A DNA stretch of 64,000 nucleotides from a virus, in the IMG/VR virus record IMGVR_UViG_3300003323_001224, positions 12,639 through 76,638 of that record; one strand, written 5' to 3'. A program made the translations under genes and the position numbers. Positions 12,613 through 60,792 of this stretch are shown piece by piece; the first letter of the stretch is position 1; the number at the start of each line of letters is the position of its first letter. Under the pieces are notes generated by a model. The model ran no database searches, was not told the DNA's origin, and worked only from the letters and a program-made list of their open reading frames with translations.

Positions 12613-14616
12613 ATGTATTATCCCATTGAGAACGGGACCGTGGAGGTCATACAGGACTATCCCTGTCAACTGCCCCCTGTTGGCTATGGAAAGAATAGGC
12701 TGACGGGCGAAGTGGAATACGTAGGTATTGTAAAGACCGATGCAAAGAAGGAAAAACAAAAATGGAAAAGGTTTGAACTGCCGAAGGATTATGAGAAGAA
12801 AAAGAAACAGGAAGAGCAGCGCCAAAAGGAAGAACCAGATCATTATAATCCTGACCTGGAAAAGATCCGGACACAACATTGGAAATACCGCCTCTGCGGT
12901 TTTTGGTTATATATAAATGGCATACCGACCTACATTCCGCCGTCCTATTATATGTATCTGCAATGGTGCCCGCTGGATATTGGTTACCCGGCTTATCGTG
13001 ATACGGATAGGAGATTTTTTTATGTATGGGAATATTGCGTGGAAGATCCGCGCTGTGCTGGTCTGATTGATATTGAACGCCGACGGATGGGAAAAACCTA
13101 TAAGAGCGGGTCTATATTACTAGACAGAACATCGATAGCCAGCCACCACCACGGCGGTATACAAAGCAAGACAGGACAGGATGCCAAGGCGGTCTTTTTA
13201 AAGACAGTAGTTCCGTTTTTTAAAAAATACCCTGATTTCTTTCGGCCAGTATTTGATCAATCCAAGGGTATGTCACCGACCACTGAGCTAAGGTTTTTTC
13301 AGACCAGTATTAAAGGCAAACGCGCCAGCGAGATCGTCGATGCGCCTGAATTGGAATCATGGATTGATTGGGGAACAGCAGAACCTTTTCATTATGACGG
13401 ATCGAAGTTGAATACTTATGTGTGCGATGAATTTGGCAAAACCCTTGAATCGAGCGTTGTTGACCGTTGGGATGTAGTCCGCTTCTGTTTAGATCAAGAT
13501 GGAGATTGGTGCGGTAAAGCTCTCTTTACTTCTACAATAGAAGAGATGGAGAACGGCGGGGTAGATGCGAAAAAATTATGGGAAAATAGCAATCCCGCTG
13601 ATAGAAATGAGAATGACAGAACCAAAACAGGACTATACAGATTTTTCTTACCTGCATACGAAACGACATATTTTGATGAATATGGTATGCCAGAAGTTGA
13701 GAGAGCAAAAACTTTCTACCTGAATGAACGGGCGGGCTTGGTGAAGGACCCAAGACAGTTGTCATCTATCATTAGAAAGAATCCTTTCTCGATTGAAGAG
13801 GCATTTCGAATCGATGGAGATACGTGTTTATTCGATGCGATGAAATTAAATGATCAACTGGATTTTTTGTCCTGGCGAGAGAACATAACAGAACGTGGAA
13901 ACTTCGAATGGGAGAATGGAGAACGTTACACAAAAGTGGTTTGGAAGAAAAATGCGAACGGTAGATTTGAGATGCCTGTCGGTTTTCATTTCGACAATCC
14001 AAACGAAGTAAAAAAGATTAATGATCAGTTTATACCCCAGAATAATGTTCGGTTTGTATGCGGATGCGACCCTTTTAAATATGACCGCGTAAAAGATCAG
14101 CGCCGTTCCGATTGCGCGGCATTTGTATTCCAAAAATTCTCCCCAGGAGATGATACGTTTAATGATTCGTTTGTTTGTAGATACAAACATAGGGCACCAA
14201 CCACGGGCATGCAATATGATGATGTCATTAAGATGTGTTGGTATTTCGGCTGTCAGTGCCTTTTTGAATGCAATATCGATAACTGGAAAGAATATTTTAG
14301 GAATGCACATTGTTGGGCATTCCTGATGATCTTACCTGGAGAATCAGATCCGGGTCTTTACGCCGATGGAGGCGGTAAAACCCATCAGCTAATATGCGAC
14401 TTGACTGAAGATTATATTGATAAGAATATTAAAAAGGTACTGTTTAAAGCGATGATTGAGGATTGGTTGCTGTTTAAGTTGGACAAGACAACCGACTTCG
14501 ATGAAACCATGGGCGCCGGCTATACATTGATTGCAGCTCGAAAGAAGCTCTACAGAAAAAATGGAGATATCCAGCGTGACCTGACAGACTTTTTCAGAAT
14601 TTATAAAGCAAGTTAA
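12613..14616 (+). CDS. terL: Terminase large subunit
   Basis: Walker A-like RRRMGKT, Walker B YVCDEFGK, nuclease motifs CGCDPF and DFDETM. Confidence 0.9.
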   Translation: MYYPIENGTVEVIQDYPCQLPPVGYGKNRLTGEVEYVGIVKTDAKKEKQKWKRFELPKDYEKKKKQEEQRQKEEPDHYNPDLEKIRTQHWKYRLCGFWLYINGIPTYIPPSYYMYLQWCPLDIGYPAYRDTDRRFFYVWEYCVEDPRCAGLIDIERRRMGKTYKSGSILLDRTSIASHHHGGIQSKTGQDAKAVFLKTVVPFFKKYPDFFRPVFDQSKGMSPTTELRFFQTSIKGKRASEIVDAPELESWIDWGTAEPFHYDGSKLNTYVCDEFGKTLESSVVDRWDVVRFCLDQDGDWCGKALFTSTIEEMENGGVDAKKLWENSNPADRNENDRTKTGLYRFFLPAYETTYFDEYGMPEVERAKTFYLNERAGLVKDPRQLSSIIRKNPFSIEEAFRIDGDTCLFDAMKLNDQLDFLSWRENITERGNFEWENGERYTKVVWKKNANGRFEMPVGFHFDNPNEVKKINDQFIPQNNVRFVCGCDPFKYDRVKDQRRSDCAAFVFQKFSPGDDTFNDSFVCRYKHRAPTTGMQYDDVIKMCWYFGCQCLFECNIDNWKEYFRNAHCWAFLMILPGESDPGLYADGGGKTHQLICDLTEDYIDKNIKKVLFKAMIEDWLLFKLDKTTDFDETMGAGYTLIAARKKLYRKNGDIQRDLTDFFRIYKAS

Positions 14617-15152: not shown

Positions 15153-17498
15153 ATGGAACAAGAACAATTATTTCAGGCATATCCTTCCCATAACATCGAT
15201 CCAAGAAAGAAAGATAAAGCATGGGCTATGCAATATCTCAAGGCCGGATGGTATGACTGGAATTATACTATACCACGTACCATATTTTACAACTCTGCGG
15301 ATAAGTACGAGGAACTTCGACTATACGCCAACGGGAAACAACCAATTTCGAAATATAAGAAGCTTATGGGCGTAGATGAACAGACAAACCAGACATACCT
15401 CAATCTGGATTGGTCTGTTCGTCCTTTCATCGCGCAAAAGCGAGATGTTGCTATTAGCAAAATGATGCAGCAGGGACATACGATTGTTGCAACACCGATA
15501 GATCCTACGGCCAAAGCAGAGCTGGATAAATTCTTTGCGGAAGTTAAGGCCAAGATCGCCATGCGGCAGGTATTGGAACAACAGAACCCAGAGTTGGCAC
15601 AGCATCCCATGCTCCAGCCACAACCTGGTGAGCCTGTCGATTGGGAAGAAATGCAGATGAGGATAGATTTTGGTGAGCAATTCAACCGTGCCAAGGATGC
15701 GGAAGAAGCCATACAGTTGGGCTTTTATGAGAATAGTCTTGAACAATTCATAAAAAAACTTTATGAAGATCTTTTCGATCTCGGTGTGGCCGGTTACAGA
15801 GAATGGCTGGGAGATGATAACAAGCCAAAATTCCGAAATGTAAATCCGGAGGCCGTTGTTACCAGTATATGCAAGTGGGCCGATTTCAGAGATATGATCC
15901 ATGCAGGTGAGGCCATTGACGTATCGGTCATCGACTTGGCTGAGTTGGAAGAAGATGGAAAGCCGGTATTCACGGAAGAGCAGATCCAGAATATCATTAA
16001 CAACGTCGCAGGGAAATGGAGCAACCCTTCTATGGTTGGCAGGAGCACCAACTATTTCAAGCCATACGATAAATGGAAGGCAAAAGTCTTGGATATGGAA
16101 TTCTATTCTTATAATGATTATGATTATAAGATCGGCAAAGATAGCCGTGGCAATACCAGGGTGAGCAGAGAAGAATACCGGGATAAGCCTTCTGAGAAGA
16201 CTACGCGCAAAAGGATTAAGGTGGTATATTGTTGCAAATGGGTGATAGGGACCGACTATGCATACGATTTCTATCTTAAAGAAGATATGAAACGTTCAGT
16301 TGATCCGAAGAAAAAGGCAGAAACGCAGCTCAGCTTCCGTTTTATTGCGACTAACTTTTATGAAATGCGGGCGCTTGGAATGATGGAAAGGCTTCGACCA
16401 TTGATTGATGAATATCAGATCGATATTTATAAAGTACAGAACATAGCTAATCGTATTGTACCCAACGGATGGTGGATAGATTTAGATGCGTTGGAAAATG
16501 TGGCGCTCAATAAAGGCGGGGAAAATATGAAGCCAATCGATTTGATACAAATGTTTATGGAGACAGGTGTATTGGTGGGGAGATCACAGGGCGTCATGGG
16601 CGATAACGTCAACTATAAGCCCATTATCCCCATTCAAAATTCAATAGCCGCCGAGCTGGTAGCCTACTACCAGAAAATGGAAATCACCATGAACCAGATT
16701 CAGGCAATGATAGGCTTGAACGATATTACCGATGCCAGTACTCCAAATCCAAAATTGCTAAATGGGGTTGCAACCATGATGGATCAGGGTACTAACAATT
16801 CCCTGTATCCAATGATACAAGCCAAAAAGCATCTGATGACCCTGTTAGCTAATGATGTTTTAATTCGAATACAACAAGGTCTGCGCAAAGGGGGCGTAGC
16901 GGGATATGCTCCGGCATTGAATACGAACACGCTCAAATTTATTCAAGTTTCCGAAACGCTAACGCTTCGCGATTACGGTATTATGTTGGAAGAAAAGCCG
17001 ACAGATGAACAGAAGCAGATGTTGATACAACAAATGCAATTTGATATTCAAAATGGATTCCTGGATACCAGCGATGTGTTTTACGTTATTAATGTCTATA
17101 ACATCAAACAGGCACAACAAATATTGGCGTATCGGGCCAAACGGAATAAACAGGCAATTGAGCAACAGAAGCAAGCCGCGGCAGCACAGACGATACAAGG
17201 GCAACAGCAGAGCGCGATGCTATCCGCCCAAGCTGCCCAGCAATTGGAAATGATCAAGCACCGAAATGCGATGGAATTGCAGCAATTGAAAGGCGTCCAG
17301 GCGCTGGATGAAATTCGCTTAAAAATGGGTATGCAGGCGGCCTCAACAACAGAAACGAATCAAACGAAGGTTGCTACACAAATGATAGCTGCTCAATCAC
17401 AAGAGAAGATGCAGAAGCGGGACTTGGGCATGCCGGAAGAGGAAGAACCTGGAGAGATTGCCATGGAGAGAAATATACCTGAAGAAGAGATGATGTAA
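15153..17498 (+). CDS. Portal protein (crAss-like)
   Basis: 781 aa after terL, Q-rich C-terminal barrel, DLFDLGVAG and IGLNDITD motifs. Confidence 0.8.
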   Translation: MEQEQLFQAYPSHNIDPRKKDKAWAMQYLKAGWYDWNYTIPRTIFYNSADKYEELRLYANGKQPISKYKKLMGVDEQTNQTYLNLDWSVRPFIAQKRDVAISKMMQQGHTIVATPIDPTAKAELDKFFAEVKAKIAMRQVLEQQNPELAQHPMLQPQPGEPVDWEEMQMRIDFGEQFNRAKDAEEAIQLGFYENSLEQFIKKLYEDLFDLGVAGYREWLGDDNKPKFRNVNPEAVVTSICKWADFRDMIHAGEAIDVSVIDLAELEEDGKPVFTEEQIQNIINNVAGKWSNPSMVGRSTNYFKPYDKWKAKVLDMEFYSYNDYDYKIGKDSRGNTRVSREEYRDKPSEKTTRKRIKVVYCCKWVIGTDYAYDFYLKEDMKRSVDPKKKAETQLSFRFIATNFYEMRALGMMERLRPLIDEYQIDIYKVQNIANRIVPNGWWIDLDALENVALNKGGENMKPIDLIQMFMETGVLVGRSQGVMGDNVNYKPIIPIQNSIAAELVAYYQKMEITMNQIQAMIGLNDITDASTPNPKLLNGVATMMDQGTNNSLYPMIQAKKHLMTLLANDVLIRIQQGLRKGGVAGYAPALNTNTLKFIQVSETLTLRDYGIMLEEKPTDEQKQMLIQQMQFDIQNGFLDTSDVFYVINVYNIKQAQQILAYRAKRNKQAIEQQKQAAAAQTIQGQQQSAMLSAQAAQQLEMIKHRNAMELQQLKGVQALDEIRLKMGMQAASTTETNQTKVATQMIAAQSQEKMQKRDLGMPEEEEPGEIAMERNIPEEEMM

Positions 17499-21437: not shown

Positions 21438-22682
21438 ATGGCAGATCTGTCACAATACATATCTATTGCTGTAGTGTTGGACAAAAGCCAACCAAGCCCC
21501 ATTTTTCGTATTGTTGATAATAGCAACTATCCGCTGGGTGTGGCGCAAACGATTGCGGGGATCTTGAGTGTAACCCAGCCAGATAATATTACCATTCAGA
21601 ATACGGATTTCTCACAGCCAGATATATACTGGAATACGAGTGCCCTCGTACCTGCTGATCTTGAGCTGAGATTAGATAATACGGGCAGCTTCCAAAGAGG
21701 AGGCAGCGGCTATCGTATTATTTATACAGTTCGGGCGCCTGGGTATGATGATACTATTTTGACGAAAGTCTTTTCGCTTTCTTACACTCCTCCTGCCATT
21801 GTCATCACCAATAATTTTGATATATTCACGCCGGATCTATCCGTCCAAGATAGCACCAACTACAACCAATTATCCCTAGATTTTATTTCCGTTGTCAGGG
21901 CGTGGTTAGCGAACATTATTTCTGTTGAAGGCACCACGCAAATCATCAGCGGGACCGATCAGGTGTTCGATCTCAATTATCTTGGGAGTTACTACGACTC
22001 CCAATATGATATTACCCTATCCATCACTCCTCAATGGCGCTTACAGGGGACATCCAATTTTGTTACGATCATCGATGAATTGGCCGATGACATTACGCTC
22101 TATGCGCAAATACCGCCTTCATTAGCTGACCTACAAGTAGACCTTGCGACACTCAAAAGTGAACTTGATGCAGCAGTCTGTGATTGCAATTTATACCGCA
22201 TATTGTTTGATCGATACAATTTAGCTAATTCCATCTATTCGCAATTGGTGGCAAGAGGACAGGCAGGGTCGTTGTCTGGATTGGATGTATATATATATCA
22301 ACTGGAAAAGATTTTCAATAATAATGTTAACCCCACCTATGAAAACACGAATGAGATAATTCCGGCTTATGACTGGAATACCGGTGGCGGAGGCAGTGTG
22401 GCTTGGACCAATATAACCGGAAAGCCCAGTTCTATCACTGTTGAATGGGTCGTCGGGCAAATGGGGTATCCTGGTGAAGGGGCGACTACTTACACGAATA
22501 CTAATATGGTCAATGTACCCGTAAGTAGGATTTATGTTTTTCGAAACGGATTTCCGCAATTCTCCTCCAATCCGCCAGATGGAGACACCTATTACACTAA
22601 GAATCTTGCTGATAACTTCCTGACTTTTTCGGTAGCGTTGGGTCTAAACGAAAAAATTATCATACTCATACTTCCTCTATAA
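21438..22682 (+). CDS. Putative virion structural protein
   Basis: 414 aa, acidic and beta-rich, with a VAWTNITGKPS fibre-type repeat motif. Confidence 0.5.
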   Translation: MADLSQYISIAVVLDKSQPSPIFRIVDNSNYPLGVAQTIAGILSVTQPDNITIQNTDFSQPDIYWNTSALVPADLELRLDNTGSFQRGGSGYRIIYTVRAPGYDDTILTKVFSLSYTPPAIVITNNFDIFTPDLSVQDSTNYNQLSLDFISVVRAWLANIISVEGTTQIISGTDQVFDLNYLGSYYDSQYDITLSITPQWRLQGTSNFVTIIDELADDITLYAQIPPSLADLQVDLATLKSELDAAVCDCNLYRILFDRYNLANSIYSQLVARGQAGSLSGLDVYIYQLEKIFNNNVNPTYENTNEIIPAYDWNTGGGGSVAWTNITGKPSSITVEWVVGQMGYPGEGATTYTNTNMVNVPVSRIYVFRNGFPQFSSNPPDGDTYYTKNLADNFLTFSVALGLNEKIIILILPL

Positions 22683-29357: not shown

Positions 29358-30806
29358 TTAAAATTTCCTTGAAAAATCATGCTCCATATTTCCTAGCATA
29401 AGGCCTAACCCATCCTTTAAATATTCTTCCGTCATGCTGGGTGTAGCATGCCCGCAGTATTGTTGGATAAGCGCAATAATAACCCCCCCCATGTACATAT
29501 GGATGCAGCGGGTATGCTTCCAGGAATAATTAGTTAATTTAGGTGAAAATCCTCCAGGCTCCCGTACTTCATCCCTGAATTTGTCGCTAAAAAAAGCGCG
29601 ATTCGTAGGGACCGGTCCCGGTGGCCCATCTATACCAAAGATGTAGTAGTGACCCGGACAATCCTTTAAACCCATTCTGATAAAAAGTTCTATCAGTTCC
29701 GGTTCCATGTGAATGAATCTGCCGCGCCCCTTTTTTGCCTTTTCGTCGGGAATCATTAATTTATTTCGACCCCAAAGAATATTTTCCACTTGTAAGTTAC
29801 GTGTTTCCTTATCAGGCCGGGTGCCCGTGTAGTATATTACCTCACTAAAATCATGCAGGTATTTTCCCCAATAAGGGACAGCCAGAATTGCCTTTTTCAC
29901 AGCCGGTATGATACTATCTTCAAAAGGAGTATGCCTGATCTTAGTTCCCTTCCTCATCAACTCGACACCTTCAGCAGGGCTTTTGCTTATAATCTGTAGT
30001 TCGTCTTTACAATAATTAAAAAATGTAACAAACTTTTTTACCTTATCATTGTATGTCAAAGGCGCCCATTCCTTTTCCTCTCTCTTTGCCGCGAGAAAAT
30101 CTTCCAGGTCATCTTGCGTGAAGGTCGCAATATCATCATACCACTGGCTTTCTTCCAATAGCGTATTTTTAGCTATATGCTTTTTCAACAAATTCAAGGG
30201 CACTGCATATGACTTTCGGTTCACTTCATCATAGTGTTGCAAAAAAAGCTCACTGGCCGCATTCAAGGTAATGACCTGCTTTTTAGCTTTCTTTTCTGCC
30301 TCTTGTTCGGCTAAGATCCTATTATACTCGTCTATCTCATATTGGAATGGGCTGAAGCCATTCTCTAGCTCTTTAAGCATGGTGGCCAACAGCTGGAGCG
30401 CAAATTCAGGGTCCTGCGCGACTCCTTTGAAAACGCGAAAACGTTCCCATTCTCCCGGCGCATTGTGTCGCTGTTGCAATACGGGCGGTAGCCCAGGAGG
30501 CACCTTAAAATAGTATTCAATATACTTTTTCTTCCCCTCAACGAGCTTGGGCGGTTTCCAGGTTATGTATTTTCCCGTTGACACTTTTTTGGCAATTTCC
30601 TTTGTCAAAAATACGAACTTTTTGATTTTCAGGTCTTTGTTTTTTTTAGGGTTGATCGCGTGTATCAACTCGGCATTTTCGACTTCCGGAGTATTGCTGA
30701 TTTTCAGCGCTTTAGATTTTTGCATGGTGATCTTTTTTAGGCGATTTTGGCAATTTTTTGACAATTTTTCTGAGCCAAATCTACATCGAATTCGCCATTT
30801 CTGCAA
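29358..30806 (-). CDS. int: Tyrosine recombinase / integrase
   Basis: YYTGTRP (R), KAK (K), YSWKHT, CGHA, TEEY (Y); SAM-like domain upstream; true start probably downstream of 30806. Confidence 0.85.
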   Translation of the reverse strand: MQKWRIRCRFGSEKLSKNCQNRLKKITMQKSKALKISNTPEVENAELIHAINPKKNKDLKIKKFVFLTKEIAKKVSTGKYITWKPPKLVEGKKKYIEYYFKVPPGLPPVLQQRHNAPGEWERFRVFKGVAQDPEFALQLLATMLKELENGFSPFQYEIDEYNRILAEQEAEKKAKKQVITLNAASELFLQHYDEVNRKSYAVPLNLLKKHIAKNTLLEESQWYDDIATFTQDDLEDFLAAKREEKEWAPLTYNDKVKKFVTFFNYCKDELQIISKSPAEGVELMRKGTKIRHTPFEDSIIPAVKKAILAVPYWGKYLHDFSEVIYYTGTRPDKETRNLQVENILWGRNKLMIPDEKAKKGRGRFIHMEPELIELFIRMGLKDCPGHYYIFGIDGPPGPVPTNRAFFSDKFRDEVREPGGFSPKLTNYSWKHTRCIHMYMGGVIIALIQQYCGHATPSMTEEYLKDGLGLMLGNMEHDFSRKF

Positions 30807-30833: not shown

Positions 30834-33102
30834 GTTGTGAATTCCTTTTAAAATTGAACGCTCAGTAACTAGAATACAAACTGATGTTCAACCTTTACTG
30901 TTGTAATTACATTTACAAAAAGTGCATTCAACATTGATACATATTACGGCAAGCAACATGAATGTTGTGACTTCCTTTTCAAACATATTATTTAGGGAGG
31001 GCAATAAAATAAGATGGATTATAAAGCATTATAGTCGTACTATCCTTAGTACGCTACTAAGCTTGCGTTGTGACTTCCTTGTTCAGTGGTTCAATATCTT
31101 GCGATCTTCTCTAAAAAACAACAGTCAATGAGTGGCCAAAACTCTGGCAGTTGTGAATTCCTTTCAAAATGGATTTTCCTACAACCCAAGCTGCGTAGGT
31201 AAACCTTCCTGTTGTTGTGATTTCCTTTTAAATAGATGCAGCCTACAATTCCCCTTCAACTAACTTTCAAAGCCATATAACCATTTTCTCGTTGTGATTT
31301 CCTTTTAAATAGATGCAGCCTACAACTGGTGAGTAGGTTGTTGTTTCCGAGGAGCAGTTGTGACTTCCTTTCAAAATTAAGCTTCCTACAGCCAACCTCC
31401 TCTATCCTTATATTCCTGAGTTGTTGTGACTTCCTTTCAAAATTGAGCTTTCTACAACAAATGCTTAAAATTGGATTCCATAGCCATAGTTGTGAATTCC
31501 TTTCAAAATTAAGCTTCCTACTACTGGACAGGGCCTGGGGTAACAGGACATAGGTTGTGATTTCCTTTCAAAATTAAGCTTCCTACAAAGTATAGCTTTT
31601 TGGATATTTTTCACGGTAGTTGTGACTTCCTTTCAAAGGAAAGGTTCTTGCAACTTTCATAGGTGGGGTTTACATTGTTATCGAGTTGCGACTTCATTTC
31701 AAAAATTGAGGTTGATACAAATGGCGCCCCTGGACAAGTTCTTTGTCACCGTTGTGACTTCCTTTCGAAATCAAGCTTTCTACAACCCTAGCCCACATAG
31801 GCACGGGATACCATTGGTTGTGACTTCCTTTCGAAATTAAGCTTTCTACAACTCATTAATCCTGCCTCCGCTTATCGTTCCTGTTGTGAATTCATTTCAA
31901 AATTAAGCTTCCTACAACAATTATGGCAAATATATATAACGACTCCTAAGTTGTGACTTCCTTTCAAAATTAAGCTTCCTACAACCCCTGGCGATTAACG
32001 TGACGTCCCATTAATGTTGTGACTTCCTTTCAAAATTAAGCTTCCTACAACCAAACAATGTCATACTTTTATAATTAACTCGTTGTGACTTCCATTCAAA
32101 ATTAAGCTTCCTACAACTAAGTTCACGAACATCATATGAAGATAGGAGTTGTGACTTCCTTTCAAAATTAAGCTTCCTACAACCAGCCGACGGGCGGCTA
32201 TTTAAATAGGTTTGTTGTGACTTCCTTTGAAAATAAAGCTTCCTACAACAGTCAGCCCAATTATAAGAGATACACCTATGTTGTGACTTCCTTTAAAAAT
32301 AAAGCCTCCTACAACTTACCAAAACCAGTGACAACAACGGGACGTGTTGTGACTTCCTTTCAAAATTAAGCTTCCTACAACAATGTTCGATCATTCCTTT
32401 TTTGAAAGTACGTTGTGACTTCCTTATAAGCTTCCTACAACCGGCGCATGGCATGGGTACGCAAATGAAGTGTTGTGACTTCCTTTCAAAATTAAGCCTC
32501 CTACAACACATCAGCAGCGCAGATACCGGCAATTGCCGTTGTGACTTCCTTTCAAAATTAAGCTCCCTACAACAAAAATGAAAAAGGTTTACAATGTCTC
32601 GTAGTTGTGACTTCCTTTCAAAATAAAGCTTCCTACTACGGTCGATGTTTTGATAAGTCATCACTCATAGTTGTGACTTCCTTTGAAAATAAAGCTTCCT
32701 ACAACTGTTGTGAGCAACTACGTATAGGCGTGCTCTGTTGCGACTTCCTTTAAAAATAACCTTCCTACAACAGCGTGCCCAAGATCAGCTACGACGCCAA
32801 TGTTGTGACTTCCTTTCAAAATTAAGCTTCCTGCAACCAGCAACCAATCCTCAATCATTGCTTTGAAGTTGTGACTTCCTTTCAAAAATAAGCTTCCTAC
32901 AACAGGACCTGATAACAGGCCACACGACATTACGTTGTGAATTCCTTTCAAAATTAAGCTTCCTACAACCGAGATCCTTTTCACGTCAAACGACCAGCAG
33001 GTTGTGAATTCCTTTCAAAATTAAGCTTCCTACAACAGGCCCAGTCCGCTCCCGTCCGTCAGCCGCGTTGTGAATTCCTTTCAAAATTAAGCTTCCTACA
33101 AC
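30834..33102 (-). CRISPR. CRISPR array of about 34 repeats (30 clear from 31150, 4 degenerate), 36-nt repeat, mostly 30-nt spacers
   Basis: + strand repeat GTTGTGA(C/A)TTCCTTTCAAAATTAAGCTTCCTACAAC with ~66-bp period; degeneration towards 30834 puts the leader at the 33103 side. Confidence 0.97.
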
Positions 33103-33281
33103 CTGTTTCGCTAGAAAGCACACCTCTCCTGCATTACAGCCTATATTGTCACAATAAAAATGCGAAACATTCTCGAAAAAATGAGAATAATAAATTAAAA
33201 AAAGGATTCAGGAGTGCTTCACGGCCTCCCGCTCAGGACGTACAACCGCCCCCTAATATTTTCAAAGAACTTGATGAGATT
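33103..33281 (-). ncRNA. Leader plus candidate guide scaffold/tracrRNA
   Basis: About 80-nt GC-rich segment ending in a T-run just after the cas gene stop, then an AT-rich leader. Confidence 0.4.
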
Positions 33282-35236: not shown

Positions 35237-35306
35237 GTGCGGTCGCCGGATTCGAACCGATCTTTAGGGTTATGAGCCCTATGTGCTGCCGTTACACTAC
35301 CCCGCA
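35237..35306 (-). tRNA. tRNA-Met(CAT), initiator-like
   Basis: TAGGG-CT-CAT-AA-CCCTA (three G-C pairs), GGTTCGAATCC; acceptor stem imperfect. Confidence 0.7.
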
Positions 35307-35315
35307 AAATTACAG

Positions 35316-35387
35316 TTCTCCCTACGGGATTCGAACCCGTGATGACGCCGTGAAAGGGCGCCGACTTAACCGCTTGTCGAAGGGAGC
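35316..35387 (-). tRNA. tRNA-Glu(TTC)
   Basis: GCGCC-CT-TTC-AC-GGCGT, GGTTCGAATCC. Confidence 0.85.
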
Positions 35388-35499: not shown

Positions 35500-35820
35500 A
35501 AATAGGGGCAGGTCGTATCCTGCCTGCCCCCAATCATTGTTACGGTTTACAAGACCGCTGCTGATAATGAGTCAGCTGGCAAATTGAAGTTTTCAAACAG
35601 CCTAATGCTCATGCTGTCGTCTGACGATCTACCATCTGATCTACCCCCCCTCCGGGGCGGCTGCTCCGGAGGGGGGGACAGGACTCGAACCTGCGACTTT
35701 CAGATTACCGACTGCTTGACTTCAACAAGTGAAACTTAGCTTAAAGCTTTTGACGCAATGCTTACGCTCATATCTAGGATCTGTTTAAGCTGATGCTAAA
35801 GCTAAAGCTTTGTCAAAGAT
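35500..35820 (-). ncRNA. Structured ncRNA containing a circularly permuted tRNA-like domain (35620-35704)
   Basis: T arm, then loop-closed acceptor stem, then D arm, closed by TCTGA/TCAGA and further stems. Confidence 0.65.
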
Positions 35821-36612
35821 TTATTTTCCGTGAATATATCCAAAGATCTTTTCAGCTGTTAGGCCAGACTGTACAACTTCAACTTCATTGGCTTTTGCCA
35901 AAGCCTCCCGCACTGACTCCTTAAGTTTACTAAGCCTATACAACATTGCCGCTCTATCGCGATGGGAAATCTCACCGGAAAAATGCTGTACTGTCTGCAT
36001 CCCCAAAACGACTTGCGTATCCTTAGAAGCTATTTGAGGCTTATAACCAGATCCATCCTTTAGCAGTTGAATATTTGGATCGGGGAGAATGTATGATTCC
36101 TTCAAGGTAGTTCTATTGGCACTTTCGAAAACTTCTGTTTCCCAAATATTTTCTGACTTCATCTCGCTGTCGTTGGATCGCACCCATTTGATATCATCTC
36201 TCCGGACAGGTAGCGTTTCGTACATTTTTGATAATTCTTTCGAATCCAAAAATGACCGCAAGCGCAAAAGTTCAAGTGTCGTATACTTCCCCCAATCTTC
36301 GCCATCAACAATAAGATTGGCGGTCGCTTTGCCGGTGGCATTTGTCGCCTCAATGGCAAACAAATTTGTTATGTGATCGCCGCAGGTGTCCAGAAAATAT
36401 TTGAGATACTCCGGCACTGAATTTTGTACCGGTTTGAATCCCCTTTTCGAAGGTTCATCTAAGTAATCGCCTTCTGCTTGATAAGTTTGCCGCACTCCCA
36501 CGAAAATTTGGGACTTATGCTTATCAGCAAAAGTGGCTACATATTCCTTCAGCAATGCATTGTACTGAGTACCTGAATGTTCTGTTTTGGCAAGCAAAGC
36601 ATTTTGTTTCAT
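35821..36612 (-). CDS. Conserved hypothetical protein directly upstream of the ncRNA
   Basis: 263 aa from MKQNALL (the longer ORF start overlaps tRNA-Lys); ANLIVDG..ELL.L..LP and FSGE..RL.KLK..V..A..KAN motifs. Confidence 0.7.
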   Translation of the reverse strand: MKQNALLAKTEHSGTQYNALLKEYVATFADKHKSQIFVGVRQTYQAEGDYLDEPSKRGFKPVQNSVPEYLKYFLDTCGDHITNLFAIEATNATGKATANLIVDGEDWGKYTTLELLRLRSFLDSKELSKMYETLPVRRDDIKWVRSNDSEMKSENIWETEVFESANRTTLKESYILPDPNIQLLKDGSGYKPQIASKDTQVVLGMQTVQHFSGEISHRDRAAMLYRLSKLKESVREALAKANEVEVVQSGLTAEKIFGYIHGK

Positions 36613-36630
36613 AATCCTTTTTTTTAATTG

Positions 36631-36703
36631 TTCCGCAACCACGGATCGAACGTGGCACTCCCTGCTTAAAAGGCAGGTGCTCTAACCACTGAGCTATTGC
36701 GGA
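36631..36703 (-). tRNA. tRNA-Lys(TTT)
   Basis: CCTGC-CT-TTT-AA-GCAGG, GTTCGATCC. Confidence 0.85.
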
Positions 36704-43902: not shown

Positions 43903-44769
43903 ATGGAACATGGAAGAGACGCTGCGCGCAAGATTCGAAAGGTGGGGCAAAGAAAAAGAGAATGCTCTTCATGCAATGCGCCTATCGAGGAGACACGCTG
44001 GACTTCTAGTCGGTATTGCAGGGAATGTGCAAAAAAAATGGAGGATAAAGAGAAGAAGAAAGCTAGAAATCATTCTCCTGACCAACTGCTGAAGAATATT
44101 TGTCGTTCAAAAGCACGTAACGCTTTAAAGAGTGGAAAAATATTACGGCAGATTTGTGAAATATGCGGCGCAACACAAACTGAAATGCACCACGATGATT
44201 ATTCGAAACCATTAGATGTTAGATGGTTTTGTAAACGTTGCCATGTTAAAAAACATAAATATGAACGCATGAGCCTTTCTCAAAAAAGTTGGCGCGCAGA
44301 ATATAAACGCATGTACTATGCGGATCTTAAAAAAAGATCACCCGCCTTTTATGAATCAGGCGGCGGAGATAGCTACCAAATACCAATACCTTCAGAAAAG
44401 AACACGAATGGCCTGACCAAAATTATTATGAAATTCTTAAAACTCAAAGGTCACTACGCTAACCGAATCAACACGCAGGGACAGGCGCGCATGGGGCGGA
44501 AGATTGTATATTACGAAGCTTTCACTAATAAGCCGGTATATGCGGAAGGAATTACATACACAAAAGGCACTACCCGGCGCGGCACGCCCGACATCGACGC
44601 CATCATATATGGCAAAACCGTGAAGATCGAAGTGAAGGTCGGTCGTGACAGCATGCGCGATGAGCAATGGGATGAGAAATGCGCTATTGAATCAGCTGGC
44701 GGATTCTACTTCATCGCGCGTAGCATGCAACCTTTTTATGAATGGTACATTGAAACTTTTGAAAAATGA
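43903..44769 (+). CDS. Zn-finger/HNH-like domain fused to VRR-NUC-like (PD-(D/E)XK) nuclease/resolvase
   Basis: CEICG...HHDDYSKPLDVRWFC..CH followed by GTPDI...KIEVK.GRD....Q. Confidence 0.65.
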   Translation: MEHGRDAARKIRKVGQRKRECSSCNAPIEETRWTSSRYCRECAKKMEDKEKKKARNHSPDQLLKNICRSKARNALKSGKILRQICEICGATQTEMHHDDYSKPLDVRWFCKRCHVKKHKYERMSLSQKSWRAEYKRMYYADLKKRSPAFYESGGGDSYQIPIPSEKNTNGLTKIIMKFLKLKGHYANRINTQGQARMGRKIVYYEAFTNKPVYAEGITYTKGTTRRGTPDIDAIIYGKTVKIEVKVGRDSMRDEQWDEKCAIESAGGFYFIARSMQPFYEWYIETFEK

Positions 44770-45033
44770 ACGTAATTAATATAGATGAAATCGGAATAAC
44801 AATCCGACCTTGTTCGCCTGATGAAGTGTTGATCATTATAGATGAAAAGAGACGACAGGCAGCCAAAGTGTTATCGATCGCCGATCTCGCGAATTTTATT
44901 ACCCAATGTCGAATTCTATTGGAGGAAATGAAATTCACTGCGACATCTTCATGCGCTGACCCTGATCTGTATTCTACCGGTCCCGATTACCCTTATTAAA
45001 CAACATTGCATAACGCTACCTATATCAAAAGAC

Positions 45034-47508
45034 ATGGGCGAAACCCTCTCCGCCGTCTGGGAGCAAGTAAAATCGCTCCTCCATGCCGGTATCTCTGTCA
45101 TCCCCGTTCGGGATCACGAAGACAAAGGCAAACCGCCCAAAACACCGTACGCCCAGTGGAAACAATACCAGGAGCGCGTTACCACCGAACAGGAATTATG
45201 GGGCCAGATGGAGCGCCACAATACCGCCGCCGTCGCCATGATCTGCGGCAAGGTTTCAGGCCACCTGGAAGCGATCGACATTGATGTAAAGAACTGGCCG
45301 GGCATTGATGCCCGGTATTTTGAAGCGATCCGGGAGTTATACCCCGATCTATGGGAGACCATCCGTATCCACAGCACGCCTTCGGGCGGCTACCACATAT
45401 TATACCGGATAGATAGGCCCGGTATACCCGGTAACCAGAAACTTGCCACTGCGGCGGGATCAACGCAGGCAGGGATCGAAACAAGGGGGGAGGGGGGCTA
45501 CGTTGTGGCTCCCCCCTCCCTGGGTTACCAGATCTATAAAGATCGACCGCTTCCCGTCTATACCTGGGAACAACGTGAAGCCCTGATCAATCTTGCGAGG
45601 AGCTTTGATGAAAAGATCAAGGTCGCAGCAGCCCCTCCCTTACCCAAAAGTAAAAATGACTATTATGATGAAAATCCATTCGAACATTTTAATGGTTCAC
45701 CTGCCGCTGAAGAGATCCTTACTGATCAAGGATGGAGCCGGCTTCGAAATAGAAATAGCAGTTATCGATATTTTACACGACCGGGTAAATCTGCTGGTAT
45801 CAGTGCCTCCTTCATTGTCGGGTCCCGACTATACTATATCTTCACTTCCAGCACCCACCTGGAACCTTCGACCGCCTACAGTCCTTCCGCTCTGCTCTGC
45901 CGACTTCGATTTAATGGAGATGGAAAAGCCCTCTACCAATACCTCGTCGAACAGGGCTACGGCAAAATAAAGTCCCGGATAGAACAACGCCTCGTACGTT
46001 CCAAGATCCTCAGCGGCGATGACCTACCCGGCAACGTCTCTTCCGCCGCCAAAGAATTATATACCAAAGAAAAAGACCGCCTATGCAGGACATACGCACA
46101 CGGCACCTACTGGGTGCAGGACGATATAGACGATGTGGTCAAGATCAACCGGGAACGCTTGTACACCGTAGCCTCCGGACTCGGCTTTCGGCACTACAAC
46201 GGCAAGGTCGTACAGATCGATGGCTATATCGTCCGGTCTGTCACGGACCGGCTGTTCTACGATACGCTGAAATCTTACTGCGTAGAAGAAGAAGCAGATT
46301 TTCTCGAAGCTATCCGCAACGCATTCGAAGCTTTTGTTCAGAAGGCTGGCGAGTTTACTATTACCCGGATCGAGGAGCTAGACGAACGTCATATTCTTAC
46401 AAGTGCGAAACATACCTCTTTCAAGTTTTATAATAACGGCTTTATCAAGATCTGGGCTACGGAAATTTCTTTTCATTCATACAGCGAAATTTCTCACTGG
46501 CTCATCTGGGAACAACAGATCATCCAAAGAGATTACCAATCTTTTGAAGGTGATGTTACCCAATCGCTTTTTTATCAATTCCTGGAAAAGGCCCTCGGCA
46601 TATCCGACTACTTATGGCAAGTCCTGGGTTATATCATCCATGACTACAAAGATGAAACCATGGGCTACATCTTCGCCCTTGTCGAAAAGTGCGAAGATCC
46701 CCGACAAGGCGGTGGCACCGGCAAAAACCTCCTTTGCAACCTGCTCTCCCATATCACCACGGTGAAGGTAGTGGCCGGCTCACAAGTCCAGTTGAATGAA
46801 AAGCTTCTCCAGTCCTGGAATTACGAAAAGCTCCTGGTCATCAGCGATGTCCCTAAGCGCTTTGACTGGAGCTTTCTGAAAGAACCTTCCATGGGACACG
46901 CCACTAAAAAAAATCTCTTTAAAGATGAAATCGTTATCCCGCCTGATAAAATGTGCAAGTTCCTGGTCCTTACCAATTATTCTTATGATAATGTTGATGG
47001 AGGACTTAGACGACGCATACGGCCACTGGAGTTTACCTCCTTTTTTACCCATTCCGGCGGTGTGGACGGGCACTTCGGTAGACTCTTTCCCTACGATTGG
47101 AATGACCTGGAATGGGCCGCCTACGATCACCTTTTGCATCACGCGATACAACGATACCTGCAATCTGATGGTAAGATTCCTGCGACCGATCTTTCCCCTA
47201 CCGGATGGCTCAAACAGTTCGATCAAACCTATCACTTCGCCACACGGGGATTTATCCAGGAACAATGGGACTTCTGGTTACGTAGTGGCTTCATCTCCAA
47301 CGAAAGTTTTAAACAAGCCTATGACCTTTATTGCAATACCAACGGCATTCATCCACGCTATCGCCTTACCATGCACAAACTCAACCAGGCCATAAGAGAG
47401 TGGTGTGATTACAATAAAGTCTTTTTCGATGTCGATGCGATCGAACGGTATAACAGTATTCCCTTCCGGGGTAAACGTTTTACTTTGCTGGAGGCGCCAC
47501 CGTTTTAA
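45034..47508 (+). CDS. Bifunctional primase-polymerase / SF3-like helicase
   Basis: Prim-Pol motifs IDIDVK, TPSGGYH, ETRGEGGYVVAPPS; Walker A GGTGKN; LTNY..GG..RRR. Confidence 0.85.
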   Translation: MGETLSAVWEQVKSLLHAGISVIPVRDHEDKGKPPKTPYAQWKQYQERVTTEQELWGQMERHNTAAVAMICGKVSGHLEAIDIDVKNWPGIDARYFEAIRELYPDLWETIRIHSTPSGGYHILYRIDRPGIPGNQKLATAAGSTQAGIETRGEGGYVVAPPSLGYQIYKDRPLPVYTWEQREALINLARSFDEKIKVAAAPPLPKSKNDYYDENPFEHFNGSPAAEEILTDQGWSRLRNRNSSYRYFTRPGKSAGISASFIVGSRLYYIFTSSTHLEPSTAYSPSALLCRLRFNGDGKALYQYLVEQGYGKIKSRIEQRLVRSKILSGDDLPGNVSSAAKELYTKEKDRLCRTYAHGTYWVQDDIDDVVKINRERLYTVASGLGFRHYNGKVVQIDGYIVRSVTDRLFYDTLKSYCVEEEADFLEAIRNAFEAFVQKAGEFTITRIEELDERHILTSAKHTSFKFYNNGFIKIWATEISFHSYSEISHWLIWEQQIIQRDYQSFEGDVTQSLFYQFLEKALGISDYLWQVLGYIIHDYKDETMGYIFALVEKCEDPRQGGGTGKNLLCNLLSHITTVKVVAGSQVQLNEKLLQSWNYEKLLVISDVPKRFDWSFLKEPSMGHATKKNLFKDEIVIPPDKMCKFLVLTNYSYDNVDGGLRRRIRPLEFTSFFTHSGGVDGHFGRLFPYDWNDLEWAAYDHLLHHAIQRYLQSDGKIPATDLSPTGWLKQFDQTYHFATRGFIQEQWDFWLRSGFISNESFKQAYDLYCNTNGIHPRYRLTMHKLNQAIREWCDYNKVFFDVDAIERYNSIPFRGKRFTLLEAPPF

Positions 47509-47566
47509 AATGAGCCCCGCGTAGAAACGCAGGGCGTGTTGTTGATGTGTTCTAACTTCAAAACAG

Positions 47567-47637
47567 AGACCATCCAGGGAGTCGAACCCTGCTGCACGGT
47601 TTTGCAGACCGCGTGCTAACCGCTCACACAGATGGTC
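47567..47637 (-). tRNA. tRNA-Cys(GCA)
   Basis: GCGGT-CT-GCA-AA-ACCGT, GGTTCGACTCC. Confidence 0.85.
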
Positions 47638-48130
47638 AGTCCTTTTTCTTCACCTTGTATTTCGAAGCTTTCTTCTCATTTCTCTTTACTTCGTCCAAAA
47701 CCCTTTTTATATTCACTCCCATTAGCTCCATTCTCTGTATGGTATATTCGTTACTGTATATCTTTTTCTGTTTTATTAGGCGCTCAATCTCCTTTAACCA
47801 AATATGCAATGGACGATCTTTTTTCCATTGATTACAACCATAGCAGCAATCTACCCTATTTTCCTTATGATCCAGGCCTCCGCGCGACAAGGGAACCACA
47901 TGATCCTTTGTTCTATCTAATCCAAAGTCATCAAAATTGCGCCTGCAATATCTACACGTGGCTTTAAACTTCTTCTGTGCTATCTGCTGGCCTTCTTTTG
48001 CTCTTTTTTGTAAATGCACTGCAATATATTCATCGAAAGACATAATCTTTTTAGGCCATTTTTCGATGAATTCAATCATGTACTTATGAAGGATTTTTAG
48101 CTTTCGTGCAGGACTGATTGCGGTACTCAT
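47636..48130 (-). CDS. HNH endonuclease
   Basis: CRYC..TKDHVVPLSRGG...N.V.CC..CN. Confidence 0.85.
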   Translation of the reverse strand: MSTAISPARKLKILHKYMIEFIEKWPKKIMSFDEYIAVHLQKRAKEGQQIAQKKFKATCRYCRRNFDDFGLDRTKDHVVPLSRGGLDHKENRVDCCYGCNQWKKDRPLHIWLKEIERLIKQKKIYSNEYTIQRMELMGVNIKRVLDEVKRNEKKASKYKVKKKD

Positions 48131-48599
48131 ATATTATCCCCTTCCTTTCTATTACACGGCGGTAACTTTACGCCGGTGTATTTCACAAGCGATCCTCCTT
48201 TCTCTTTATAGCCTACAACAGAATGAGCTGAGCCAATACCATTATAACGTTTTTGATAACGCTCCAAGTCACAATATATACATATACCTGATCTTGTTTC
48301 CTTATTCGCAGCAACTTTTTTCCAAGGACTATTCTTAAAGACATGTCCATTTACCACCAGCGGTTTCTTCCGTGCTTTGACTTCGGGAAATGTTGGGAGT
48401 GCAGTTAAAGTGCAGATAGGCAGCGGTTGCTTAATGCGCGGCACCCAGTCGCTTCCAGGCATAATTATACATTGCGCTGCCCCTTTGCTTCCGTTTTTGC
48501 TTCCACATGCCGCAATTACATTTATAAATAATGGAGCCTTTAATCACCTGTTCTTCAGGAGGCGCCTGCGTCCAGCTATGGCTGATAGCTCTGCTCTGC

Positions 48600-48998
48600 T
48601 TACGGAGTATCGGTCTTTGCATCTGGTGCTGTTGTAATGTCTGGTAATAGGTTTAATGCAAACTTCAATGCTTCTTCCATGCCCATTTCGTAGTTATTAA
48701 ATACAGGTGTGTTATTTATTTTATTATGATGCAGAATCACTCCATAGAATCCAAATTCAAACCCCTTGTTCGTGACGAAATTCTCCCAGTCTGGTTCAAC
48801 CCATACATAAATTTTATGCCCTTCCCTCAACCACCTGGCCAATAGCGTCTGCGTGATGCCGGCCATTTCAGACATGATCACCTCTCCAGACGATTGACGC
48901 ACGAGGACGGGACCTACGAAAGAAACCAGCTTACAGCCTTTCCTTGCGGCTAATAACTGCGTCTCCCTGGTGACTGCTTCATCTTTTAGTTTGTGCAT
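48600..48998 (-). CDS. Hypothetical protein, paralogue family A
   Basis: LAARKG...TQ.LL.RWLRE...ALNLLPD shared with 49333 and 49811-50358. Confidence 0.6.
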   Translation of the reverse strand: MHKLKDEAVTRETQLLAARKGCKLVSFVGPVLVRQSSGEVIMSEMAGITQTLLARWLREGHKIYVWVEPDWENFVTNKGFEFGFYGVILHHNKINNTPVFNNYEMGMEEALKFALNLLPDITTAPDAKTDTP

Positions 48999-49002
48999 GT
49001 TA

Positions 49003-49236
49003 TCATTTTGAATAACCTAAGAGATCATTTGGTGTGCAATGAAAGATATCACATAATATTATTAAGCTGGTAATCGAAGGATGACGGATTGATTTTTCAT
49101 TTTCCCAGTTATGTATATCACCCTTACTCGTATTAAGCTTGCCTGCCAATTCTTCCAGGGTATATTCATACATTTTCCTATACATTTTAATGTTACGCGC
49201 TAATACTACATTTAATCTATCATCAACGCTATACAT
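49003..49236 (-). CDS. XRE-family HTH regulator
   Basis: NIK.YRK...TLEELA.KL..S...I.NWEN...P. Confidence 0.85.
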   Translation of the reverse strand: MYSVDDRLNVVLARNIKMYRKMYEYTLEELAGKLNTSKGDIHNWENEKSIRHPSITSLIILCDIFHCTPNDLLGYSK

Positions 49237-49332
49237 CGAGTTTACTGAATTTAAAATGAATATCCATTTTCAACCAAAAGGAGCGCATAGTAACCGTTCC
49301 CGTATATGATTTCATTTACTTGCCAGTCTGTG

Positions 49333-49818
49333 CTATGCATCAGGTAATAAATTTAAAGCTTTCTGAATAGCTACCTCCCGCGCCATTTCAAACGTTTCAT
49401 ATCGTGTTTGATACAATGGCGTTTTAGGATCTACATTATCCAAAGCAAAAGCTACCGCCAGGTATCCGGATATGAGATTTTCTTTGAGTATAGGGGCCTG
49501 TCCTGAAATAATCCTATGCTTCTCTCTGAGCCAGCGTTCGATGAGATCTTGGGTAGGGCGCCCGTAAATGTAAAGCGGCAATTTGGAATTTTGTGTTTTA
49601 TGTGATTCGATTTCAATTTTCATTGCCTCAATTGTTTCCCTATCTCTATTACCTGCTTCCACGATTTCAAAGGCTCTTGTTACTAATTGATTGATAGTTG
49701 GTTCTCCTATTGCACGAGGAGGTTGTGTGTCTGCGTAAAAAACATTTCTGCACACTTCATCAAACCCTTTGCGCCTTGCAAGGACAGCTGTTTCAAATGA
49801 TACCAATTCTTCATGCAT
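49333..49818 (-). CDS. Hypothetical protein, paralogue family A
   Basis: EELVSFETAVLARRKGFDE..RPTQDLIERWLRE..ALNLLPDA. Confidence 0.65.
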   Translation of the reverse strand: MHEELVSFETAVLARRKGFDEVCRNVFYADTQPPRAIGEPTINQLVTRAFEIVEAGNRDRETIEAMKIEIESHKTQNSKLPLYIYGRPTQDLIERWLREKHRIISGQAPILKENLISGYLAVAFALDNVDPKTPLYQTRYETFEMAREVAIQKALNLLPDA

Positions 49819-50358
49819 CCGGTAACAAATTTAAAGCGTGTTGTAAAGCGGCTTCGCGGGCCAGTTCGTGAGTATCGAATCTAATACCATTAAATACCAT
49901 ATTAGATAATTCAGTTCCGATCCTGTCATAAACATTTGCCGAAAATTGTGGCGGAACAGGACGTCCTAATGTATCATTCCATCCAGGATAGCGGACCATC
50001 CAGGATAGCGGACCATCATTATATCTATCCCATGTACCTCCCTCAACCACCTCTCCAGCAGGTCCTGGGTGGGACGTGCGTATAGCCAGGGAGGGAGCAA
50101 CAAATTTTTGAATGATGGGAGTTTAAATACTTTCTCAGCTAAACCTAGTGCATTGCGCGTAGGCTCATCTAAATTTCTTGCATATTCATAATACATTTCA
50201 TTTGGTGGTGCGTAATTATTCCCTTCAGCAGATATTTCTTTAGGCCCATATATCTTGCCATTAAACTCATAATACTCCCATCCTTGCCTACACGGCTCAT
50301 CAAAACCCTTCTTTCGTGCAAGGATGGCGGTCGGATAGGTGATTAGTTCTTCAGTCAT
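49811..50358 (-). pseudogene. Family A paralogue split by a 17-bp tandem duplication
   Basis: ATCCAGGATAGCGGACC twice at 49981-50014; the two ORFs together equal one full paralogue. Confidence 0.7.
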
Positions 50359-50360
50359 GA

Positions 50361-50711: not shown

Positions 50712-50714
50712 GCA

Positions 50715-51080: not shown

Positions 51081-51163
51081 AGTAAGGAATTTAAAAAGGC
51101 CCTGATAGATATCGGGGCCGGATTGCTTTACAAAACTTCTAACTGTTTGAATAAAAATAATGA

Positions 51164-52817: not shown

Positions 52818-52846
52818 TTGGCAGCAAAATCCCACCGATTACTTCG

Positions 52847-53311: not shown

Positions 53312-53319
53312 TTTACATC

Positions 53320-54303: not shown

Positions 54304-54320
54304 ATCAAAAAAATGTTGAT
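54304..54320. promoter_or_regulatory. Operator-like palindrome copy 4 ATCAAAAAAATGTTGAT
   Basis: Intergenic, ahead of the early region. Confidence 0.55.
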
Positions 54321-55015: not shown

Positions 55016-55045
55016 TCTTCTCCGCAACCATTACCATAACGACAA

Positions 55046-60039: not shown

Positions 60040-60651
60040 ATGAGTAAGCAAAAGTTAGTAAGGACAGTCCGTACCAAAGTGTACAAGTTTGAAGGACTAT
60101 CGCCGGAAGGGCAGCAGAAGGCGATAGAATGCGAACGGAATTTTACTATTAGTAACCAGGATTTTCCATTCCTGGAAGATTATCGGCGATCTATAGATGC
60201 GTTCATTAAACTATTTCCCGTACGTTTGAACAGACGAGGGGATGGATTTGCGTTTGAAGGCAATGACGAAGTAGGCCGTTTGAAAGGCAAAAGGCTGGCT
60301 GCATTTCTGTGGAATAAGTACAAGGATTATTTATTTGAAGGTAAATTGTATTACAAAGGAGCGATATCCGGCGATACCAAGTTCTGGCATTCCAAATGCC
60401 AGCTAGAAGAAAACAGCTGCGCTTTGACGGGGATGGGGTATGACTACGCCCTATTGAAACCGATCTTTGAGTATATGCGTAAACCTACCATGTGGAAGGT
60501 TGACTTTGAAGATTTGATGTATTATTGCTATGCGGAATGGTCATTATCGATAGATAAGGAAGAGGAATACGTGCTATCAGATGAATACATCCGCGAAAAC
60601 CTCATTGAAAACGAATACGAATTTACAGCCGACGGTCGGCTATTCAAATAG
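60040..60651 (+). CDS. Early-region hypothetical protein (CRISPR spacer target at 3' end)
   Basis: 203 aa; VYKFE.LS.E.Q.KAIE...SDEYIRENLIENEYEFTADG motif. Confidence 0.7.
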   Translation: MSKQKLVRTVRTKVYKFEGLSPEGQQKAIECERNFTISNQDFPFLEDYRRSIDAFIKLFPVRLNRRGDGFAFEGNDEVGRLKGKRLAAFLWNKYKDYLFEGKLYYKGAISGDTKFWHSKCQLEENSCALTGMGYDYALLKPIFEYMRKPTMWKVDFEDLMYYCYAEWSLSIDKEEEYVLSDEYIRENLIENEYEFTADGRLFK

Positions 60652-60792
60652 GTTTCAGAACCGGATTGTACCGGTCGTAAATACCCCCGCCGTGTCTACG
60701 GTGGGGTTTTTATAAAACAAACAAAATCTATAAGCGAACCGGCGCTGCCGGTGGTTCAAGTCCCCCGATAGAGCTAATCAAATTGCAATTAT

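Follow-up and report, generated by a model that had tools for sequence, protein, structure and literature searches.

A predicted nuclease-dead Cas12f beside a phage-borne CRISPR array with spacers resembling the phage's own DNA

Why would a phage carry a CRISPR array with spacers that resemble its own DNA? The question is raised by a 64,000-nucleotide (nt) stretch of viral DNA, hereafter the window, which comprises bases 12639-76638 of the single 76,638-bp IMG/VR record IMGVR_UViG_3300003323_001224 (CheckV completeness, 100%). The carrier, a tailed phage, is complete at 76.6 kb and encodes an integrase. On its minus strand, a compact module runs in the order of a gene for a nuclease-deactivated Cas12f homolog (dcas12f), a two-hairpin RNA resembling a trans-activating CRISPR RNA (tracr-like RNA), an AT-rich leader, and the 33-repeat array. 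We consider it probable that dCas12f, guided by this array, interferes with sibling phages without cleaving their DNA, acting either from a prophage or from an infecting phage.

Self-like spacers in the array

The 30-base segment at 32184-32213 is a genuine CRISPR spacer and resembles DNA of the phage itself; with counting begun at the array's degenerate end, it is spacer 19. It is bounded on both sides by perfect 36-nt copies of the repeat and aligns without gaps to the plus strand at 60626-60655, with 28 of 30 bases identical. The initial annotation had described the two differences as third-position changes in a Gly and a Phe codon, and recomputation bears out that both are synonymous: the phage has GGT where the spacer has GGG at 60636, and TTC where the spacer has TTT at 60645. 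The match crosses the TAG stop codon (60649-60651) of open reading frame (ORF) 60040-60651 into intergenic DNA, and a terminator-like hairpin lies downstream of this ORF at ~60685-60712. As a control for chance, each of the 27 regular spacers was shuffled 20 times and searched against both strands of the 76.6-kb contig. The best match among these 540 shuffled spacers never had fewer than 8 mismatches, and the real spacers reach 2, 2, 3, and 6. The synonymous differences and the shuffle control together indicate that the match of spacer 19 is real and reflects homology between protein-coding genes rather than chance.

Self-like spacers total four (11, 13, 19, and 29) rather than two (Table 1). 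Both mismatches of spacer 29 to the terminase gene are synonymous, and the three mismatches of spacer 11 comprise two synonymous changes and one Asn/Asp replacement. In its ORF, the spacer-19 guide is complementary to the coding strand; in the terminase gene, the spacer-29 guide is complementary to the template strand. This is in keeping with the earlier observation that one target is sense and the other antisense. Those targets of the array that can be recognized lie in a terminase gene, in a structural gene, and in the early region of phages very near the carrier. Because the coding differences are almost all synonymous, the source of the spacers appears to be a close relative, and the self-like spacers were most likely copied from close relatives of the carrier phage.

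We compared Logan contigs from four root-metagenome runs (X1-X4) with positions 44001-64000 of the window. A sibling phage with ~85-95% identity is present in run X4, another sample of the same root-metagenome study, and the phage itself occurs at low depth in the root-metagenome runs. The sibling contigs in run X4 also carry insertions and deletions, e.g., at 60660-60666 and 60709-60728.

Table 1. Coordinates of the array, its self-like spacers, the effector module, and other phage genes in the window
Feature	Position	Strand	Remarks
CRISPR array	30834..33102	-	33 repeats of 36 nt, mostly 30-nt spacers
Spacer 11	31655..31684	-	Site 22315-22344 in ORF 21438-22682, 27/30; mismatches 3, 8, 14; 5' flank aaagaTTT
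Spacer 13	31787..31816	-	Intergenic site 59171-59200, 24/30; mismatches 7, 8, 13, 21, 23, 25; 5' flank gaacagAA
Spacer 19	32184..32213	-	14th from leader; guide is the reverse complement, in the predicted minus-strand transcript
Spacer 29	32838..32867	-	4th from leader; terminase site 14443-14472, 28/30; guide mismatches 3, 9; 5' flank aGGTACTG
Self-like protospacer of spacer 19	60626..60655	- (nontarget strand)	28/30; mismatches at guide positions 11, 20
Candidate target-adjacent motif, 5' flank of spacer-19 protospacer (guide orientation)	60656..60662	-	GGTTCTG; plus strand CAGAACC
ORF of 203 amino acids, phrog_10310	60040..60651	+	Unknown function; 3' end holds the spacer-19 protospacer
tracr-like scaffold RNA	33198..33252	-	Stem-loop SL1 33252-33235 (loop GUUGUA), SL2 33231-33209, then GAAUCC and U-run
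dCas12f, 364 amino acids	33282..34376	-	180 bp right of array
Large terminase	12613-14616		Virion gene set
Portal	15153-17498		Virion gene set
Tyrosine integrase	29358-30806		Window annotation
PrimPol	45034-47508		Window annotation

The dCas12f effector and the orientation of its guides

The 364-amino-acid (aa) ORF beside the array has a weak OrfB_IS605 match as its sole Pfam signal. Its full-length counterpart in the PDB is 9n9c, "Nuclease-deactivated Cas12f" of Flagellimonas taeanensis (Fta), to which residues 7-363 align with residues 9-364 (E value, 1.4e-91). A dCas12f family profile matches the phage protein with an E value of 6e-147, and active Cas12f nucleases match it more weakly. Alignment to an active relative (L086, 429 aa) and to Cas12f 9nzr puts Ser225 in place of the RuvC-I Asp and Gln322 (family-invariant) in place of the RuvC-II Glu. 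The last residues of the phage protein are GIELLIQ; at this point, active L086 goes on into a CxxC...CxxC zinc finger and the third Asp, of RuvC-III. Judged from these positions, the effector is nuclease-dead and is predicted to be unable to cut. The DNA targeting proposed in the initial annotation stands in that the effector is a relative of DNA-targeting type V proteins; with the RuvC active site missing, what would take place is binding without cleavage.

Full-length relatives of 360 to 370 aa number in the hundreds in Bacteroidota, with 358 genome loci and 73 viral loci. In most members an rpoE gene, encoding sigma-E, precedes dcas12f, as seen in the four loci that were checked (L076, L001, L009, and L084) and, by similarity, in 78 of 87 loci. 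No Sigma70_r2 match occurs anywhere in the 76.6-kb phage record, the ORFs upstream of the effector gene (78 to 95 aa) have no sigma domains, and no helix-turn-helix (HTH) gene lies near dcas12f. A 123-aa HTH ORF at 53320-53691 (+) has subthreshold matches to sigma-70 region 4 and to winged-helix domains and is not sigma-E. In a tree rooted on an active relative, the phage protein falls within a basal, sigma-E-less, array-linked grade together with two metagenomic proteins (89% and 67% identity) and the viral loci L082/L081, L083, and L085, and this grade lies outside the well-supported sigma-E clade. In locus L082 the arrays are followed immediately by a tape-measure gene, and L083 has RecT and terminase genes, so phage carriage of array-linked dCas12f is recurrent.

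Other relatives show arrangements of their own. At 12140-12470 of L082, the last ~170 nt of dcas12f and the tracr-like RNA are duplicated after a first array of 13 repeats and are followed by a second array. The spacers in the arrays of the related phages L082, L083, and L085, compared with their own records, included no convincing self-like ones. Locus L058, on a contig filed under a Neobacillus metagenome-assembled genome, holds a sigma-E/dCas12f locus that nests among Sphingobacterium sequences in the tree and probably reflects binning contamination; downstream of its gene, the repeats are 66-nt tandem units rather than CRISPR. Chromosomal, sigma-E-less dCas12f genes lie directly behind an AcrB-type RND efflux gene in two Chitinophagaceae loci (L003 and L005, Puia), an arrangement that matches an efflux-linked dCas12f cluster mentioned previously (PMC13472631).

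The link between effector and array comes from the tracr-like RNA, whose SL1 loop is complementary to the 3'-terminal ACAAC of the repeat. The SL1/SL2 motif (GGCNG-loop-CNGCC, linker, GUGAG...CUCAC) recurs beside relatives throughout the dCas12f family. Where the locus has sigma-E, a repeat-like hairpin with a fixed guide is joined to the motif, whereas at array-linked loci the motif ends in a U-run, after which the array follows. Across nine systems with seven different loops, the SL1 loop and the last 5 to 6 nt of the cognate repeat form 49 of 54 pairs (Table 2). Re-pairings as good arise in 4 of 362,880 permutations, a test that ignores relatedness; the changes are compensatory. This covariation ties the array to the neighboring dcas12f and sets the order of the guide on the minus strand, with the repeat first and the spacer second, which upholds the orientation assumed initially, with the motif side 5'. 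With the guide so oriented, the effector motif is expected 5' of the protospacer on the nontarget strand. Repeat decay has a polarity in accord with the same orientation, the repeats being near-uniform at the leader side (right, next to dcas12f) and reduced to remnants at the 30834 end.

Table 2. SL1 loops of the tracr-like RNAs and ends of the cognate repeats
System	SL1 loop	Last six nt of repeat
Window	GTTGTA	CACAAC
L082	GTTCGG	TCGAAC
L083	GTTGTG	CACAAC
L085	GCTGTA	TACAGC
L086	GTTGGA	TCCAAC
L073	CTTGTA	TACAAC
L100	ATTTTA	TAAAAC
L109	ATTTCG	CGAAAC
L143	ATTTGA	TCAAAC

The array gave a first impression of type VI-B or II-C because of its 36-nt GTTG...CAAC repeat and 30-nt spacers. We rejected both assignments, since cas13b is missing beside the array, the window holds no cas gene of Cas9 size, the neighbor is dCas12f, and the tracr-like loop covaries with the repeat end. 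Cas1 was not found in the 76.6-kb record, nor was a large cas-like ORF flanking the array, and the exact repeat was not found in genome and viral contig collections. Individual repeats vary in structure: repeat 23 (32412-32441) is shortened to 30 nt by a 6-nt internal deletion, repeats 5 and 6 have a distinct variant in common, and repeats 1 to 3 are remnants spaced 47 to 94 nt apart.

The flank motif of the self-like sites

In guide orientation, the 5' flanks of the sites are cggTTCTG for spacer 19 and aggTACTG for spacer 29. The TnCTG that the initial annotation saw in both flanks is indeed common to them and extends to GGTnCTG (6/7 positions). At least six identical positions among eight flank positions have a chance of ~0.004 for a single pair, and this pair was spotted post hoc. 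The further proposal that CTG is a protospacer-adjacent motif (PAM) fared less well, as it draws on two sites. Additional protospacers without a 5' CTG, those of spacers 11 and 13, speak in part against it, although their sites, which have none of GGTnCTG in common, are older and more diverged. Position -1 is G for spacers 19 and 29, T for spacer 11, and A for spacer 13, in each case read on the phage's own diverged copy rather than on the true protospacer.

The target-adjacent motif (TAM) of the dCas12f family has been determined experimentally as 5'-G, and the member characterized requires nothing beyond that G (PMC13472631; 10.1101/2025.06.10.658880). The G at -1 of spacers 19 and 29 agrees with it, a fit at two of the four sites. 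From the sequences at hand, G at -1 would be the best guess for the effector motif, and CTG may be a recognition motif, though it is unproven as one. Relatives of the phage that are more distant carry CTA, TTT, TAC, GTT, or ATT in place of CTG at the terminase site; because it is not conserved among relatives, this flank is uninformative on the TAM.

The repeat itself offers another source for the motif. Read on the plus strand, its first 22 nt are identical at 20 positions to type II-C repeats, 47 nt long, from Chitinophagaceae genomes (L172, L185, L186, and L188), whose arrays have 30-nt spacers and adjoin cas1/cas2-like ORFs. The phage repeat is 36 nt long and diverges from the II-C repeats after position 22. 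The repeat that follows a spacer in a type II array meets, with its 5' end, the PAM-proximal end of that spacer. In the phage array this very junction, read on the other strand, is where the TAM-proximal end for dCas12f lies, and 5'-GGTnCTG is thus the complement of a 3' CAGnACC. A 3' type II PAM, set out initially as the alternative to a 5' CTG, is therefore not distinct from it, both being the same junction read on opposite strands. GGTnCTG could reflect an acquisition PAM rather than effector recognition. Because the acquisition and effector junctions coincide, the flank alone is silent on what dCas12f requires, and flank logos from such arrays mix acquisition and effector preferences. The II-C-like part of the repeat suggests shared ancestry or shared adaptation machinery with dCas12f arrays on the opposite strand.

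Proposed interference, its rivals, and related systems

The interference that we favor would begin with spacers copied from close relatives of the phage. Because the phage has no Cas1 or Cas2, their acquisition would probably go through host adaptation machinery, which the II-C-like repeat end and the 30-nt spacer length fit. The array would be transcribed from the dcas12f side, the 3' end of the repeat would pair with the tracr-like loop, and the GAAAGGA segment of the repeat would pair with the tracr tail. A dCas12f dimer would bind DNA bearing a 5' motif (with G at -1 as the best guess) and form an R-loop without cutting, blocking transcription or replication of incoming sibling phages. The outcome would be a heritable, cleavage-free superinfection immunity. 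A roadblock has been suggested for array-linked dCas12f by Hoffmann et al. (PMC13472631), and by this analogy it is plausible that binding without sigma-E amounts to one.

The phage's own DNA would be largely spared, through seed mismatches for spacers 29 and 11 and through many mismatches for spacer 13, with spacer 19 as the exception. Members of the dCas12f family use a 14- to 16-nt guide with a 6-nt seed and tolerate native mismatches at positions 11 and 12 (PMC13472631; 10.1101/2025.06.10.658880). The first 16 positions of the spacer-19 guide match the phage's own DNA at 15, beside a G, and this guide may bind weakly at the 3' end of ORF 60040-60651. We offer only tentatively, as possible rather than probable, a fuller picture in which a temperate soil phage holds a 32-spacer memory of its relatives as a natural multiplexed CRISPR interference (CRISPRi) immunity, with the array refilled by host type II-C adaptation through the junction common to both systems on opposite strands.

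Several observations weigh against cleavage-free interference. Perfect protospacers were not found in INPHARED, in IMG/VR, among the phage's relatives, or in 401 Chitinophagaceae genomes. The whole array had zero matches among INPHARED phages, and all spacers compared with 165 related loci, including the nearest terminase relatives (43 to 80% aa identity), gave none at ≤7 mismatches. Four pattern scans of IMG/VR, with two leader-side spacers and two codon-degenerate sites of spacers 19 and 29, likewise returned zero matches. In the Chitinophagaceae genomes there were no spacer targets, and the array had partial repeat similarity to II-C arrays only. Because a perfect protospacer was not found in the databases searched, the donor phage is one that we infer. 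The repeats are heterogeneous, with 4 of 33 equal to the consensus, which could mean decay, and the G/CTG flank is absent at two of the four self-like sites (spacers 11 and 13). The TAM-contact residues of Fta dCas12f are only partly kept, with S106 and Y89 conserved as S103 and Y86 and with H110, M85, and R90 corresponding to N107, P82, and Q87; for this reason, the specificity of the Fta protein is not transferable. The fold of the tracr-like RNA, taken alone, is not better than that of shuffles (z, -1.1), and silencing as the outcome is what we infer by analogy.

The heterogeneous repeats and the badly degraded end of the array would also suit a captured host array that recorded infections by this phage lineage, with mismatches that mark escape, and that is now decaying cargo. 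The absence of cas1 and cas2 fits such a vestige, as do the mismatches of spacers 29 and 11 in the seed, where escape would be expected to place them. We nevertheless regard this explanation as improbable. The dCas12f ORF is intact and has a full-length relative with 89% identity, an intact tracr-like RNA retains its complementarity to the end of the repeat, and comparable modules are found in at least two other unrelated phages, recognized by a tape-measure or a terminase gene. In addition, changes are far sparser in the spacer-adjacent half of the repeat than in its distal half (18 against 41 in the 27 regular repeats), a difference that is partly detection bias because repeat positions 1 to 11 served as the search anchor.

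A regulatory role is less likely still. Spacer 19 would in that case guide dCas12f to the phage's own 60640-60655 and modulate early-region transcription, e.g., in lysogeny control. It is the sole spacer with a 15/16 TAM-proximal match and G at -1 on its own genome, Fta dCas12f works despite mismatches at positions 11 and 12 in its native targets (10.1101/2025.06.10.658880), and dCas12f and its TldR relatives are transcription regulators (PMC13472631). The site, however, is at a stop codon before a terminator-like hairpin rather than at a promoter, where little regulatory effect would be obvious, and its differences are of exactly the synonymous kind expected from a relative's homologous gene. 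The other three self-like spacers are clearly mismatched, and the sigma-E activation partner is absent.

We think it equally doubtful that a host II-C Cas9 with its own tracrRNA reads the array on the plus strand with CAGnACC as a 3' PAM: the II-C-like first 22 nt of the repeat, the 30-nt spacers, and a 7-nt common flank more like the long PAMs of II-C systems than a 1-nt TAM would suit it, but the repeat, at 36 rather than 47 nt, departs from the II-C repeats beyond position 22, the covariation of the repeat end with the neighboring tracr-like RNA runs in the opposite reading direction, the array polarity points to dcas12f, and spacer 19, with PAM-distal mismatches only and the flank of its presumed source, would let a cutting Cas9 endanger the phage.

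Virus-borne arrays, such as the mini-arrays of archaeal viruses and the CRISPR-Cas systems of huge phages, contain spacers that match close relatives, implying virus-virus conflict. Those systems use cutting effectors, either the host's or their own, whereas the effector linked to the present array is catalytically dead by prediction. The phage protein belongs to the same family as the Bacteroidota dCas12f described by Hoffmann et al. (2026) (PMC13472631; 9n9c/9n9m/9n9o/9n9q), with homology over the full 365 aa, the same RuvC substitutions and C-terminal truncation, and an SL1/SL2 scaffold with loop pairing just upstream of the guide. In contrast to those systems, it is phage encoded and has neither an rpoE partner nor a nearby hth gene. 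Its scaffold is split into a tracr-like RNA and a 33-repeat array of 30-nt spacers, where theirs has a fixed single guide of 14 to 16 nt. The spacers resemble phage genes (terminase, structural, and early) rather than susCD or efflux promoters.

Among other effectors, type V-F CRISPR-Cas12f (9nzr, 8hr5, 7wju) is alike in its miniature effector fold, dual tracrRNA:crRNA (CRISPR RNA) logic, repeat-then-spacer guide, and 5' PAM/TAM. The phage effector differs in that it lacks the RuvC D-E-D triad and the zinc finger, is therefore predicted not to cut, is ~60 to 140 C-terminal residues short, and has no adaptation module. The best functional analogy for a noncutting type V effector linked to an array is type V-M Cas12m, which binds and blocks transcription without target cleavage (Wu et al. 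2022, cited in 10.1101/2025.06.10.658880); Cas12m is of another Cas12 lineage, keeps its RuvC site for crRNA processing, and is host encoded. TldR, too, is nuclease-dead, binds DNA under RNA guidance, and is encoded by temperate phages (Wiegand et al. 2024; PMC13418256), but it has one fixed omega-RNA guide on the host flagellin gene, no CRISPR array, and an origin in separate TnpB clades.

The protein family, its dead active site, the scaffold, and the 5'-G TAM are published already. The dCas12f systems characterized so far are chromosomal, with a fixed guide and a sigma-E partner that switches genes on, and sigma-E-less copies next to CRISPR arrays form a side cluster mentioned in passing (PMC13472631). 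The literature searched yielded no account of dCas12f arrays encoded by phages or of sibling-phage spacers. If our reading is true, the same miniature effector also serves phage-phage conflict without DNA cutting, as a natural multiplex DNA-binding module of ~1.3 kb plus the array. An array without Cas1/Cas2 may then gain spacers by borrowing II-C adaptation read on the other strand, an idea that is testable.

Elsewhere in the window, ORF 809-4165, the sole one of its size (1.1 kaa), encodes a virion structural protein. Two tRNA genes lie at 35238-35387 (-) and 35618-35702 (-) (50.7 and 39.6 bits). By them, and directly downstream of the DUF7873 ORF 35821-36642, there is a subthreshold match to the Y RNA-like family YrlA (RF02553; 35.7 bits versus a gathering score of 69). 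The tRNA genes and the YrlA-like match may together form a phage Y-RNA/tRNA-like ribonucleoprotein module.

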